Source: PVC group bacterium (GTDB lineage Bacteria > Auribacterota > Erginobacteria > Erginobacterales > Erginobacteraceae). Taken from it: 42,601 nt of DNA. The number at the start of each line of letters is the position of its first letter. The first letter of the stretch is position 1. Location of the stretch: the NCBI GenBank assembly GCA_043804695.1, contig JAZDIV010000027.1, positions 1-42,601 of the forward strand, in the 5' to 3' direction. Shown piece after piece: positions 2,588 to 30,924 of this stretch. The position numbers and the translations under genes were made by a program. The notes below the pieces were generated by a model that was not told the DNA's origin, made no database searches, and saw only the letters and a list, made by a program, of their open reading frames with translations.

Positions 2588-2735
2588 TATTAGTCAGTCC
2601 ATAATTGTATGGACATGTCATTGCGAGGAGCGGAGCGACGAAGCAATCTCAACTCCATGCACAGCAAGAGATTGCTTCGCTGCGCTCGCAATGACCGCAA
2701 TCGTTGATGTAAATACTACCACGGTCGGATTAATA
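2588..2735. mobile_element. MITE-like element, copy 1, carrying a GTCATTGCGA REP dimer (2617-2695)
   Basis: Colinear with 16315-16500. Ends TATTAGTCAGTCC / GGTCGGATTAATA are imperfect inverted repeats with terminal TA. Confidence 0.7.
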
Positions 2736-9147: not shown

Positions 9148-9228
9148 GTCATCGCGAGCCCCGAAGGGGCGAAGCGATCTCGACTTTCTTTCAAAGGTTT
9201 TAGATTGCTTCGCTCCGCTCGCAATGAC
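9148..9228. repeat. GTCATTGCGA-family REP dimer
   Basis: GTCATCGCGA-GCCCCGAAGGGGC-GAAGCGATCT ... AGATTGCTTCGCTCCGCTCGCAATGAC. Confidence 0.85.
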
Positions 9229-16314: not shown

Positions 16315-16500
16315 TATTAGTCAGTCCATAATTGTATGGACATGTCATTGCGAGGACCCTGAGCGAAGCGAAGGGGACGAAGCAATCTCAACTCTATGTA
16401 CAGCAAGAGATTGCTTCCCGCCACGCTTTGCTCGCGGCTTCGGCTAACGCTCGCAATGACCGCGATCCTTGATGTAAATCCTATAACGGTCGGATTAATA
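16315..16500. mobile_element. MITE-like element, copy 2, carrying a GTCATTGCGA REP dimer (16344-16460)
   Basis: Same ends and backbone as 2588-2735. The length difference lies inside the REP hairpins. Confidence 0.7.
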
Positions 16501-24477: not shown

Positions 24478-24677
24478 GAGGTTGTCCGATCAATCCGATT
24501 TTAACCATTTTCACGGTCATTGCGAGGAGCGCAGCGACGAAGCAATCTCATCGTTTTAGATATGAATGGGTTTGGTTTAAGATGATAGATTGCTTCGCCC
24601 CTTCGGGGCTCGCGATGACATTTTGGTGGTTGCGACACAGTCTGAATGACGTAAAAAGTGGTTTGTCGGACAGCCTT
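24478..24677. mobile_element. MITE-like element with GAGGYTGTCCGA ends carrying a GTCATTGCGA REP dimer (24516-24619)
   Basis: Left end GAGGTTGTCCGA. Right end reverse-complements to AAGGCTGTCCGA. TGAAGAGG occurs at both 24474 and 24679. Confidence 0.55.
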
Positions 24678-24693: not shown

Positions 24694-24767
24694 GTGGTGG
24701 AGGAGTTGAGTAATGGAGAACCGAGGCCTGCAATACATCATTTCACCACTCCATCACTCCCTACTCC
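24694..24767. repeat. Degenerate inverted array of about 8-mer units (GGAGTRAT / ATYACTCC type)
   Basis: GGAGGAGTTGAGTAATGGAG ... CACCACTCCATCACTCCCTACTCC. Confidence 0.5.
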
Positions 24768-24815
24768 TTTTCAGCCTATCTCATTAACAGGGCAATAACT
24801 TCGGGGCATGTTAAT

Positions 24816-25799
24816 ATGAAATCACTGGTTACCGGCGGCGCCGGTTTCATCGGCAGTCACCTGGTGGAAGCCCTCCTGAAGCAGGGGGATGACGTGACCG
24901 TTCTCGACAATTGCTCCACCGGGAGAAGGGAGAACCTCGACCAGCTGGAGGGGAGAGAGTTGATCAGGTTCCATGAAGTGGACATCGCCGATCAGTCTTC
25001 GATCAGAGATCTCTTCCGGGGGGTTGACCGTGTCTTCCACCTCGCCGCCCTGGCCGACATCGTCCCCTCGATCCAGAAACCGATCGCCTATCACCGCTCC
25101 AACGTGGACGGGACGATCAGCGTTTTAGAAGCCTCCCGCGCCGCCGGGGTGAAGCGTTTTGTCTACGCCGCCTCCTCCTCCTGCTACGGCATCCCGGATA
25201 AATATCCGACCCCGGAGACCGCTCCCGCCCGCCCGCAGTATCCCTACGCGCTGACCAAGTATGTCGGCGAACAGTATGTCCTCCACTGGGGAGAAGTTTA
25301 CAATCTTCCCGTCGTCTCGCTCCGGTTCTTCAATGTTTACGGGCCGCGGTCCCGCACCTCCGGCACCTACGGAGCGGTCTTCGGCATCTTTTTAGCCCAG
25401 AAACTGGCCGAAAAACCCTTCACCGTGGTAGGTGACGGCACCCAGACCCGGGACTTCACCTTTGTCACCGACGTGGTTGAAGCCTGCCTGGCCGCCGCGG
25501 AATCCGGCCTCGAAGGAGAGATCCTCAATGTGGCCGGCGGACGCCCGGTCAGCGTCAACCGGCTGGTCGAGCTCCTGGGCGGCGATGTTCTCCATATCCC
25601 GAAACGGCCGGGAGAACCGGACTGCACCCACGCCGACATCTCCAAGATTCGACGCCTGCTCGGATGGGAACCGAAAGTCGCCATCGAAGAAGGAGTCGCC
25701 ATTCTGCTCGACCACATCGACTACTGGCGGCAGGCGCCGGTCTGGACGCCGGAGACAATAGCCGATGCCACCAGGGATTGGTTCAAGTACCTGGGTTAA
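24816..25799 (+). CDS. NAD-dependent epimerase/dehydratase (UDP-hexose 4-epimerase-like)
   Basis: TGGAGFIG, HLAALADIVPS, ASSSCYG, YALTK and RFFNVYGPR motifs. Confidence 0.92.
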   Translation: MKSLVTGGAGFIGSHLVEALLKQGDDVTVLDNCSTGRRENLDQLEGRELIRFHEVDIADQSSIRDLFRGVDRVFHLAALADIVPSIQKPIAYHRSNVDGTISVLEASRAAGVKRFVYAASSSCYGIPDKYPTPETAPARPQYPYALTKYVGEQYVLHWGEVYNLPVVSLRFFNVYGPRSRTSGTYGAVFGIFLAQKLAEKPFTVVGDGTQTRDFTFVTDVVEACLAAAESGLEGEILNVAGGRPVSVNRLVELLGGDVLHIPKRPGEPDCTHADISKIRRLLGWEPKVAIEEGVAILLDHIDYWRQAPVWTPETIADATRDWFKYLG

Positions 25800-25804
25800 A
25801 CAGT

Positions 25805-25935
25805 GTCATTGCGATCCGCCTCAGGCGGAGAAGCAATCTCAAATCTGGGGTAGCGTCATTGCGAGGCCGGAGGCCAAAGCAATCTCAAATCTGGGGTAGC
25901 GTCATTGCGATCCGCCTCAGGCGGAGAAGCAATCT
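25805..25935 (+). repeat. Three direct REP units upstream of the GIY-YIG gene
   Basis: Units at 25805-25839, 25855-25885 and 25901-25935, separated by the identical 15-nt linker CAAATCTGGGGTAGC. Confidence 0.92.
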
Positions 25936-25967
25936 TAAATAGAAAAAAGCAATCTCCAATAAATGAG

Positions 25968-26255
25968 ATGAGCAAGCTCTACTGCGTTTACATAATGACA
26001 AATAAAAATAACACCGTTCTCTATACGGGTGTGACCGGTGATTTAAAGAAAAGGGTTTATCAGCATAGAAATAAATTGGTCGAGGGATTTACGAAAAAGT
26101 ATAATGTTCAGAAGTTAGTTTATTACCAGGCCTTCGGCAACCCTGAAAGAGCCATTTTGAGAGAGAAACAAATCAAGGGTGGGCCGAGGAAAAAGAAGAT
26201 AGCGCTGGTTCAAGAAAATAATCCGACCTGGAGGGATTTGTACCCCCTGTTGTAA
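25968..26255 (+). CDS. Stand-alone GIY-YIG nuclease family protein (95 aa)
   Basis: YCVYIMTN....LYTGVT.DL..RV.QH......FT.KY...KLVYY.......AI.REKQIK......K..L....NP.W.DL. AT-rich. ATG at 25968. Confidence 0.92.
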   Translation: MSKLYCVYIMTNKNNTVLYTGVTGDLKKRVYQHRNKLVEGFTKKYNVQKLVYYQAFGNPERAILREKQIKGGPRKKKIALVQENNPTWRDLYPLL

Positions 26256-26259
26256 AATG

Positions 26260-26497
26260 AGATTGCTTCTCCGCCTGAGGCGGATCGCAATGACTCGGAG
26301 GCCTCAGGAGATTGCTTCGGCCGGCGGCCTCGCAATGACCGGGAGGGCTTCGAAATAATTTTTGTCATTGCGAGGCCCGATTTATCGGGGCGAAGCAATC
26401 TCCTCTGAAGAGTACTGACCCGGAGAACTGATGAGATTGCTTCGGCCTCCGGCCTCGCAATGACCTGGAAAATGACGGCCTCCGGCCTCGCAATAAC
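26260..26497 (-). repeat. REP units downstream of the GIY-YIG gene
   Basis: Reverse units at 26260-26294 and 26309-26339, a forward unit at 26364-26401, a reverse unit at 26434-26464 and a partial unit at 26476-26497. Confidence 0.92.
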
Positions 26498-26509
26498 CGG
26501 GAGAACTAT

Positions 26510-28045
26510 ATGAGCGCGAATAAAACATCCGACAAGATCAAAACGCTCGACGAACTGGAAAAGATCATCGCCGGGCTGAAGAAAAAGGGCAAAAAGGTCG
26601 TCCTCTCCCACGGGGTCTTCGATCTCCTCCATCCCGGCCATATCAAGCATTTTGAAGCCGCCCGGCGGCTGGGGGATGTCCTGGTGGTAACCCTGACGGA
26701 AGACCGCTATGTCGGGAAAGGCCCCGGCCGCCCGGTCTTCAACCAGCGCCTCCGGGCGGAGACCCTGGCCGCGATCGAATCCGTCGATTACGTCGCCATC
26801 AATCAGTGGCCGACCGCGATCGAGACGCTGAAAAAGCTCAAGCCGGACGTCTATGCCAAGGGAAGCGACTACGCCGACCGGAGCCAGGACCTGACCGGGG
26901 AGATCTCCAACGAAGAAAAGGCGGTCCAGGAAGCCGGGGGGAGGATTCACTTCACCGACGAGATCTCCTTCAGCTCCACCGAGCTTCTCAATGTCCATTT
27001 CAGCGTCTATCACGAGGAAGCCGACCAGTTCCTCCGGGAGTTCCGGAAGAAGTACCGGGCCGACCGGATTATCAAGATGATGAAGGACCTGAAAAAGCTG
27101 AAAGTCCTGGTGGTCGGCGACCCGATCATCGACGAATACCATTACTGCCAGCCGATGGGGAAGGCCTGGAAGGAGACGGTCATCACCGCCCGCTACCTGG
27201 ACCGGGAGTCTTTCGCCGGAGGCGTCCTCGCCACCGCCAACCACATCGCGGGCTTCTGCGGGAAAGTCGATCTGGCGACCTGCCTGGGCCGGGAAAATAC
27301 CCAGGAAGAGTTCATCCGGAAGCGCCTGAAACCCAACATCACGCCGACTTTTTTCTATCGGGATGACGCCCCCACCGTCACCAAGCGCCGCTATGTCGAT
27401 CCCGCCTTTCTCTCCAAGATGTTCGAGGTCTGCTTTCTCAATACCCGGACACCGCCCCCTGAGGTCACCGAACAGGTATGCGATCACCTCGCTCGCGTCT
27501 GCCCCGGATACGACCTGGTCATCGCCTCCGACTTCGGCAACGGCTTCATCGACGAGGAGATCGTGAAGACGCTCTGCGGGAAATCCCGCTTCCTGGCCGT
27601 CAACACCCAGACCAACAGCGCCAACACCGGCTTCAACCTGATCACCAAGTACCCGAAGGCCGACTACGTCTGCATCGACGAGCCGGAGATTCGCCTGGCC
27701 CTGAGCGACAAATACGGGAGCCTGGAGGACATGATCCTCCGGATCGCCGACCGTCTGCGCTGCCGGCGGGTCACGGTCACCCGGGGTCACAACGGCTCGA
27801 TGGGATACGCCCCGGAGAGCGGGTTCGCCGAGGTCCCCGTTCTCTCCAAGGAGATCGTGGACCGGATCGGCGCCGGCGACGCCTACCTGGCGGTCACCTC
27901 CGCCTGCGGGGCGGCCGGTTACCCGATGGACATGGTCGGGTTCGTGGGCAACGCCGTCGGCGCCCTCGCCGTCCGGATCGTCTGCAACCGGGAGTCGGTG
28001 GAGCCGATCCCGCTCTACAAGTTCGTCACCGCTCTTTTAAGATAG
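26510..28045 (+). CDS. Bifunctional cytidylyltransferase-like nucleotidyltransferase and PfkB kinase (HldE/RfaE-like, reversed domain order)
   Basis: N-terminal HGVFDLLHPGH...KGPGRP. C-terminal VVGD.IIDEY and DRIGAGD. Confidence 0.88.
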   Translation: MSANKTSDKIKTLDELEKIIAGLKKKGKKVVLSHGVFDLLHPGHIKHFEAARRLGDVLVVTLTEDRYVGKGPGRPVFNQRLRAETLAAIESVDYVAINQWPTAIETLKKLKPDVYAKGSDYADRSQDLTGEISNEEKAVQEAGGRIHFTDEISFSSTELLNVHFSVYHEEADQFLREFRKKYRADRIIKMMKDLKKLKVLVVGDPIIDEYHYCQPMGKAWKETVITARYLDRESFAGGVLATANHIAGFCGKVDLATCLGRENTQEEFIRKRLKPNITPTFFYRDDAPTVTKRRYVDPAFLSKMFEVCFLNTRTPPPEVTEQVCDHLARVCPGYDLVIASDFGNGFIDEEIVKTLCGKSRFLAVNTQTNSANTGFNLITKYPKADYVCIDEPEIRLALSDKYGSLEDMILRIADRLRCRRVTVTRGHNGSMGYAPESGFAEVPVLSKEIVDRIGAGDAYLAVTSACGAAGYPMDMVGFVGNAVGALAVRIVCNRESVEPIPLYKFVTALLR

Positions 28046-30793: not shown

Positions 30794-30924
30794 GTCATTG
30801 CGAGGAGCCATTGCCCCGAAAGCCTTCGGGGCAATGAGCGACGAAGCAATCTCATTTGGAAGGAGTTGTATACTACGTTGAGAAAGGAGATTGCTTCTCC
30901 CGCTTCCAGCGGGATCGCAATGAC
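30794..30924. repeat. GTCATTGCGA-family REP dimer with a nested hairpin
   Basis: Forward unit 30794-30852 contains CATTGCCCCGAA/TTCGGGGCAATG. Reverse unit at 30888-30924. Confidence 0.85.

Follow-up and report, generated by a model that had tools for sequence, protein, structure and literature searches.

The window analysed here is a 42,601-nucleotide (nt) contig of an uncultured PVC group bacterium (JAZDIV010000027.1, assembly GCA_043804695.1), and its subject is a small nuclease gene that lies among hairpin repeat units, together called the cassette. The gene encodes a 95-amino-acid (aa) protein with a single GIY-YIG domain. We conclude, with a probability of about 80%, that this protein is a member of the Ssn family (minimal GIY-YIG endonucleases of single-stranded DNA (ssDNA), SsnA type) and that the flanking units are its cognate repeats. 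The pairing of enzyme and hairpins is drawn from the family membership of the protein, the conserved tags of the hairpins and the association of gene and repeat across genomes. The meaning of such a pairing was largely settled by Chenal et al. (Nat Commun 2025, PMC11893778); it is real but already known, and the original prediction, which put it forward as a candidate REPtron-like system, has been overtaken in this respect by the published Ssn family. New here are a two-tier repeat subtype with an ATTGC/GCAAT stem, an insertion that is absent in nine relatives, and close homologues at unrelated sites. The assignment also gives this gene of an uncultured bacterium, together with its roughly 300 repeats, a place among proteins of known biochemical activity.

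Ssn proteins are GIY-YIG nucleases of about 94 aa. They cut ssDNA, and the cut falls immediately 5' of hairpins that carry a GTC tag and flank the gene of the nuclease itself (PMC11893778). SsnA of Neisseria meningitidis, a 94-aa single-domain GIY-YIG protein, binds and cuts only ssDNA, beside an oriented hairpin termed NTS, and four Ssn homologues cut ssDNA beside their own repeats. These repeats, termed SRM, flank 71% of the Ssn homologue genes and lie on both sides of 42% (PMC11893778). The system in the window resembles SsnA and NTS in its single GIY-YIG domain of about 94–95 aa, in the oriented hairpins that flank the gene and occur in hundreds of copies, mainly intergenic, and in the GTC before the stem and the C after it. 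These last positions are critical for SsnA and are conserved in the units found here.

The Pfam GIY-YIG match spans residues 5–76 of the 95, with no further domain match. Homologues were 86–143 aa long, mostly 95–97, and residues Y8, Y19, G21, R29, H33, E66 and N85 were all retained in the window protein, each being at least 98% conserved among 88 homologues. The two Tyr, the Arg, the Glu and the Asn we take to be catalytic, from general knowledge of GIY-YIG enzymes. When PLSDB was searched with tblastn, the protein matched an open reading frame of N. gonorrhoeae at E 1e-22, with 50.6% identity over 87 ungapped residues (6–92). Chenal et al. count as an Ssn homologue any tblastn match at E < 1e-10 (PMC11893778), and the observed value lies far below this limit. 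The N. gonorrhoeae reading frame, used as a stand-in for the N. meningitidis SsnA protein, is 94 aa long and has nine exact copies of the NTS consensus within 1.2 kb (16 at up to three mismatches). It comes from one of two matching 2.17-Mb records (NZ_CP119140.1 and NZ_CP119142.1, about 51% identity), which are filed as plasmids in PLSDB and at this size resemble chromosomes. A homologue from the same phylum as the window (L017, 53–54% identity) lies between the arms of a perfect inverted repeat of 28 nt, 27 of whose 28 positions equal the NTS consensus.

By tblastn the genome has a single ssn-type gene copy, and its two other Pfam GIY-YIG matches had no unit within 1.5 kb. The phage records gave no protein match at E 1e-10, NCBIfam gave sub-cut-off fragments only, and the PADLOC defence models gave one sub-threshold match, UzuA (E 0.006). 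UPF0213/YhbQ-type proteins are also small stand-alone GIY-YIG domains of about 100 aa, but the match to one of them (BH0048, PDB 1zg2) was marginal (E 3.9e-4), indicating a different subfamily, and this identity was rejected. We know of no repeat association for proteins of that type.

The cassette and the genes at its borders are arranged as follows.

24816..25799, + strand: NAD-dependent epimerase/dehydratase gene, left border of the insertion site (Pfam PF01370, E 1.6e-65)
25805..25839, + strand: hairpin unit A1, with GTC tag, 5-bp outer stem, GA/GAA internal loop and 6-bp inner stem
25855..25885, + strand: hairpin unit B1, with inner stem GGCC/GGCC
25901..25935, + strand: hairpin unit A2, left arm of a perfect 35-nt inverted pair
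25943..25956, + strand: remnant of a unit 3' end, AAGCAATCTC-like, directly 5' of the start codon, 79% to the reference copy
25968..26255, + strand: ssn-type gene for the 95-aa single-domain GIY-YIG nuclease (Pfam PF01541, E 3.9e-16)
26260..26294, − strand: hairpin unit A', right arm of the perfect inverted pair, beginning 4 nt past the stop codon
26309..26339, − strand: hairpin unit B'
26364..26401, + strand: hairpin unit C, with inner hairpin CCCGATTTATCGGG
26434..26464, − strand: hairpin unit B'', forming a head-to-head dimer with unit C
26477..26497, − strand: partial unit of 21 nt, the tag half only, with GTT replacing GTC, abutting the ribosome-binding site of the next gene
26510..28045, + strand: HldE-like bifunctional gene (cytidylyltransferase-like plus PfkB kinase, Pfam), right border of the insertion site

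The architecture described in the original prediction was found in full: a stand-alone gene with three direct units upstream (A-B-A) and inverted units downstream, where four and a half units were counted. The two units nearest the gene, at 25901–25935 and 26260–26294, had been called perfect reverse complements and are 100% complementary over 35 nt; an outer pair (25805–25841 and 26258–26294) is 100% complementary over 37 nt. The gene is indeed AT-rich, with 40.7% G+C compared with 58.9% in its flanks, and it does interrupt a sugar operon, the epimerase/dehydratase, ssn-type and HldE-like genes all being co-oriented. Units A1, B1 and A2 are joined by a 34-nt stretch that is exactly duplicated at a 46-nt spacing, and the upstream array arose by tandem duplication. 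Downstream, a tandem duplication of 125 nt (85% identity) links the region of unit B'' to that of B'. A promoter and terminator scan of 25600–26700 found nothing.

Each unit consists of an unpaired GTC tag, a 5-bp ATTGC/GCAAT outer stem, a GA/GAA internal loop, a variable apical hairpin and an unpaired C. The gene-adjacent units fold as two-tier ssDNA hairpins (−9.4 kcal/mol, z −3.47 for the DNA fold of A1; −9.8 kcal/mol, z −3.10 for C). The claim that constant ends surround a swappable hairpin was borne out. The pattern GTCATTGCGA-N8-30-AAGCAATCT matched exactly at 13 places in the window, whereas 100 dinucleotide shuffles gave no match; one unit ends AAAGCAATCT in place of GAAGCAATCT, a trivial departure. 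Across loci, the two ends of the outer stem covaried. A TTGC start was accompanied by the matching complementary end in 213 of 259 cases, TCGC in 16/31 and TTCT in 15/22, while cross-matches were rare. This covariation supports the maintenance of the hairpin by selection.

In the whole assembly (2.97 Mb in 155 contigs, 88% complete) there were 244 exact units, with 88 different cores, and 303 units when one mismatch was allowed per end (relaxed). When the search was anchored on ATTGCGA...AAGCAAT alone, GTC stood directly upstream in 235 of 242 cases and C directly downstream in all 242. The base before GTC, read in 238 units, was G in 104, T in 90, A in 27 and C in 17. The units formed 173 clusters, including 118 dimers, of which 115 were head-to-head with their tags outward as in the cassette; their spacers were mostly of two lengths, 21 nt in 53 cases and 40 nt in 33. 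Clusters of three or more units numbered just five in the genome, and two of the five flank the gene. In Rfam no family covered the units, with two weak chance matches elsewhere.

If enzyme and repeat belong together, homologues should also be flanked by repeats, as the original prediction had proposed. We surveyed 80 named loci with 55–71% identity to the window protein; judged by the titles of their records and by tree labels, they represent at least 15 phyla. A unit lay within 300 bp of the gene in 55 loci by the exact search and in 64 by the relaxed search, and units lay on both sides in 34 and 49 respectively. Unit density was 2.6 per kb near the gene and 0.13 per kb farther out, an approximately 20-fold local enrichment that bears out the proposal. 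The 16 loci without an ATTGC-type unit all carried a variant GTCA-tagged hairpin, with outer stems that include TTCT/AGAA, TCCT/AGGA and TCGC/GCGA. The tags of the nearest units pointed outward on both sides in 51 of 88 loci, and the reverse arrangement was seen once (1/88). Among relatives of the window genome, all six other loci with at least 67% identity had units no more than 60 bp from the gene, and none of 13 weaker-matching loci had the ATTGC/GCAAT unit type.

A sample of 79 genomes from the phylum gave a similar picture, with homologues accepted at E ≤ 1e-20 and genomes called repeat-rich from 37 units upwards. A homologue was present in 11 of the 14 repeat-rich genomes and in 6 of the 65 others, counts that overstate the strength of the association because related genomes are not independent. 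Units were present in all ten genomes whose homologue reached 60% identity or more, nine of these having at least 37, and five of the seven genomes with homologues of 48–56% identity had at most one. One relative (G037) has four ssn-type genes in two tandem pairs (contig C3, 62576–63491; contig C11, 89272–91779), 50–67% identical to the window protein; the C3 pair is interleaved with ATTGC-type units as in the window.

These figures bear on a different explanation, in which the repeats are spread by another enzyme, such as a Y1/RAYT-type transposase, or are RNA-level elements, and the GIY-YIG gene merely sits in a repeat hot spot. The genome does hold six Y1_Tnp matches (PF01797, IS200/IS605- or RAYT-like, on contigs C62, C43, C114, C12 and C51), and the epimerase–HldE spacer holds unrelated repeats in other relatives. 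However, the 1.5 kb to either side of each of these Y1 genes is free of units, and a RAYT/Y1 transposase was rejected as the partner. The absence of a matching Rfam family for the units and the pairing at 64 of the 80 loci (relaxed) in many phyla, with its local enrichment, also speak against this explanation, which we consider very improbable; flanking units are commoner at nuclease homologues than at random genes.

Several observations weigh against assigning the protein and its repeats to the Ssn family. Identity to the Neisseria enzyme is just 51%. The published SRM search pattern matched none of the 303 units and only 2 of the 80 homologue loci, and the G that precedes GTC in 104 of 238 units is a base which that pattern excludes. 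With nearest-neighbour DNA parameters, the folds of the commonest units of the genome show no advantage over those of shuffles (z +1.47, −0.29 and +0.05), and the cores beside the gene are minority types genome-wide. Three genomes (G007, G011 and G002, 87–97% complete) carry 123, 111 and 58 units with no close homologue found, and the other small GIY-YIG genes in them are unflanked at 11 of 12 loci, with a dimer near the twelfth. These three genomes speak against a strict linkage of repeat number to gene presence. Finally, binding and cleavage of the ATTGC/GCAAT subtype are extrapolated from SsnA.

The folding result concerns cores of the GCG-N-AGC type, the commonest genome-wide, which we take to resemble the very stable G-N-A mini-hairpins of DNA chemistry. 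We treat the SRM mismatch as a limit of the search pattern and not of family membership, because the pattern is a handmade search tool, built manually from 29 genomes (PMC11893778), and not a definition of the family. In the window genome it gave 37 matches, compared with 16 in the reversed-sequence control. In the table of Chenal et al., Kuenenia, two Brocadia species, Melioribacter roseus and Deferribacter autotrophicus have an SsnA/cd10448 homologue and SRM counts of 0.56 to 2.9 times those of shuffled genomes, that is, the enzyme without repeat enrichment; Supplementary Data 4 also lists cd10448-positive species in Brocadia, Melioribacter and Deferribacter (PMC11893778). We found homologues of 63–69% identity in these last three genera, and ATTGC-type units at homologues from other species of the three (not of Kuenenia). 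The published pattern under-detects a large branch of the Ssn family: of the 80 loci, which span at least 15 phyla, 64 have ATTGC-type units (relaxed), compared with 2 found by SRM.

The subtype differs from the Neisseria system in several ways. The window units are two-tier, with an apical hairpin of 7 to about 40 nt, whereas NTS is one continuous stem of 8–9 bp (PMC11893778). The nearest-unit tags face the gene at the N. gonorrhoeae locus, in contrast to the outward tags prevalent in this subtype. The ATTGC-type hosts are for the most part uncultured anaerobes of many phyla and not symbionts.

The units also resemble the CGTC-tagged REP superfamily, which has an unpaired (C/T)GTC tag, A-T pairs at the first stem positions, a short tail and mainly head-to-head dimers (Di Nocera, De Gregorio and Rocco 2013, PMC3733652). 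Its four families, mostly from Alphaproteobacteria, have 8–9 bp stems with 4–5 nt loops; according to that survey no dedicated transposase was known, and neither GIY-YIG nor the ATTGCGA motif is mentioned there. The corresponding features are present here, namely GTC in 235 of 242 units, a stem beginning A-T, T-A, and 115 of 118 dimers head-to-head. The units depart from the superfamily in that G is the most frequent base ahead of the GTC and in that their stem is not continuous.

A third comparison is with REP and REPIN elements, which Bertels and Rainey reportedly described with RAYT genes in 2011. There, too, a single-copy enzyme gene is bracketed by inverted hairpin repeats that populate the genome as inverted doublets, and the RAYT enzyme is thought to act on single-stranded hairpins. 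RAYTs are HUH/Y1 transposases, whose reaction passes through a covalent DNA intermediate and allows strands to be rejoined, and their repeats carry a GTAG tag. Ssn, in contrast, is a hydrolytic GIY-YIG nuclease with GTC-tagged repeats; the gene flanked here encodes a GIY-YIG protein and not the HUH/Y1 tyrosine transposase that defines a REPtron. Among the papers listed in our literature search, the names cd10448, Ssn-related motif (SRM) and Neisseria Transformation Sequence (NTS) occurred in none beyond Chenal et al. 2025, and none paired a GIY-YIG enzyme with REP, REPIN or RAYT repeats.

On the reading that the units are cognate repeats of an Ssn nuclease, the SsnA model suggests how the enzyme would act on them. 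It would most likely bind the hairpin only in ssDNA, as exposed, for example, when DNA is replicated, taken up or repaired. Recognition would rest on the stem base together with the GTC and C tags, a single orientation being accepted, and the enzyme would hydrolyse the strand a few nt 5' of the tag. The apical part would be left unread, which would explain why the apical hairpin is swappable. Because the tags point outward on both sides of the gene, the predicted cuts lie just outside the cassette, one on each strand, and the approximately 115 gene-less head-to-head dimers have the same outward-tag geometry. Constant ends around a free apical hairpin suggest which part of the DNA the enzyme reads, which would be useful for the proposed Ssn-based ssDNA tools.

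The five gene-less head-to-head dimers that had been reported in the window are all present (no strand assigned).

2617..2695: units of 32 nt and 26 nt, 21-nt spacer
9148..9228: left unit with a compensated outer stem, ATCGC/GCGAT
16344..16460: units of 44 nt and 52 nt
24516..24619: 40-nt spacer
30794..30924: a 59-nt unit with a long inner hairpin and a 37-nt unit

The cassette is an insertion at its present site. The epimerase/dehydratase gene adjoins the HldE-like gene in nine relatives, and in all nine the spacer between them, approximately 25 to 440 bp long, contains neither gene nor unit; empty sites of this kind had been anticipated. The shortest spacer, a bare 25 bp, shares the ribosome-binding region found here 3' of the last partial unit. 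Orthologues of the HldE-like gene were present in 12 of the 14 relatives searched. Seven close homologues of the nuclease (67–100% identity) showed no flanking similarity and lie at unrelated sites, while the five homologues from the same family or order formed one clade with 96% SH-aLRT support, in a quick tree with 52 of 85 forks open. When four of the dimers were compared with the same-genus genome G001, three (2617, 16344 and 24516) were absent from the orthologous spacer and one (9148) was shared. The right unit of the shared dimer (9203–9228) has a 45-nt longer core in G001 (L135, about 2120–2190) with the constant ends kept, so the apical part can be replaced or invaded in place. The extra DNA in the G001 unit contains a separate small hairpin module (CCCCGAAGTTTTAATCGGGG).

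These empty sites and non-syntenic locations fit mobility, without separating gain from loss, and provide concrete material for judging whether such cassettes move. The original prediction had the enzyme both recognise and disperse the hairpins. Recognition by a cognate enzyme is the part supported above; dispersal is demonstrated neither here nor by Chenal et al., who raise the likeness to insertion sequences and REP-associated transposases without demonstrating mobility (PMC11893778). That cutting leads to spread of the repeats we put forward tentatively, at less than even odds.

At the same tentative level, the cassette may be an autonomous mobile element, its nuclease mobilising both the cassette and, in trans, the head-to-head dimers as REPIN/MITE-like non-autonomous elements. 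The nine empty spacers, the clade of close homologues at unrelated sites, the three dimers missing from G001, the outward tags shared by 115 of 118 dimers, the concentration of two of the five larger arrays around the gene and the four gene copies in G037 all point this way. On the other hand, GIY-YIG enzymes hydrolyse DNA without a covalent intermediate, so any joining activity would need to be supplied by the host; we know of no strand-transfer chemistry for a GIY-YIG hydrolase. No target-site duplication was visible at the cassette ends and no exact excision junction is definable, since the intergenic DNA of the relatives is too diverged for precise boundaries. A search for sequencing runs in which filled and empty alleles or expression might be seen listed none, nor any holder of RNA data. 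The repeats also persist in G007, G011 and G002, in which no close gene was found, and in an unrooted comparison empty sites fit gain and loss alike. A stronger version is doubtful in our view. In that version the cassette would mobilise itself and represent a new mechanistic class. Its nuclease would nick ssDNA hairpins at the two outer ends, the repair or replication machinery of the host would copy cassette and dimers into new intergenic sites, and the ATTGC-type repeats found in many uncultured phyla would be REPIN-like offspring.

The same locus could instead reflect a domesticated host function, in which the enzyme curbs or modulates, at repeat-marked sites, how ssDNA that enters the cell or becomes exposed recombines, and the repeats spread by other means. 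In N. meningitidis, SsnA lowers the integration of NTS-flanked transforming DNA (PMC11893778). A host role is also consistent with the single gene copy here and with the 55–71% identity kept across many phyla. However, the gene changes site among close relatives, and its G+C content is below that of its flanks in 88 of 89 loci, which would suit a mobile or foreign gene better than one settled in its host. We regard a domesticated function as rather unlikely.

Some further observations concern the DNA around the units. The region 24700–24790 and the epimerase–HldE spacers of relatives contain other, unrelated short tandem or head-to-head repeats, among them GGAGTAATGGAG/CACTCCATCACTCC arrays and AGTGATC heptamers; these intergenic spacers are general repeat hot spots. 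Within the cassette, the stretch around the ribosome-binding site and start of the HldE-like gene (GGAGAACT.ATGAG, 26493–26515) has a look-alike at 26416–26437, just before the inner end of unit B'', which suggests that unit-adjacent sequence was duplicated along with the leader of that gene. Elsewhere in the genome the dimers form families set by their spacers and by conserved flanks outside the units (for example C11 25073–25176 and C20 12788–12891). One 21-nt spacer occurs in both orientations, 10 times in one and 9 in the other, and a 40-nt spacer carries a Shine-Dalgarno-like AAGAGGTGG followed by ATG. Because spacers and outside flanks are conserved, the repeated elements exceed two units in size.

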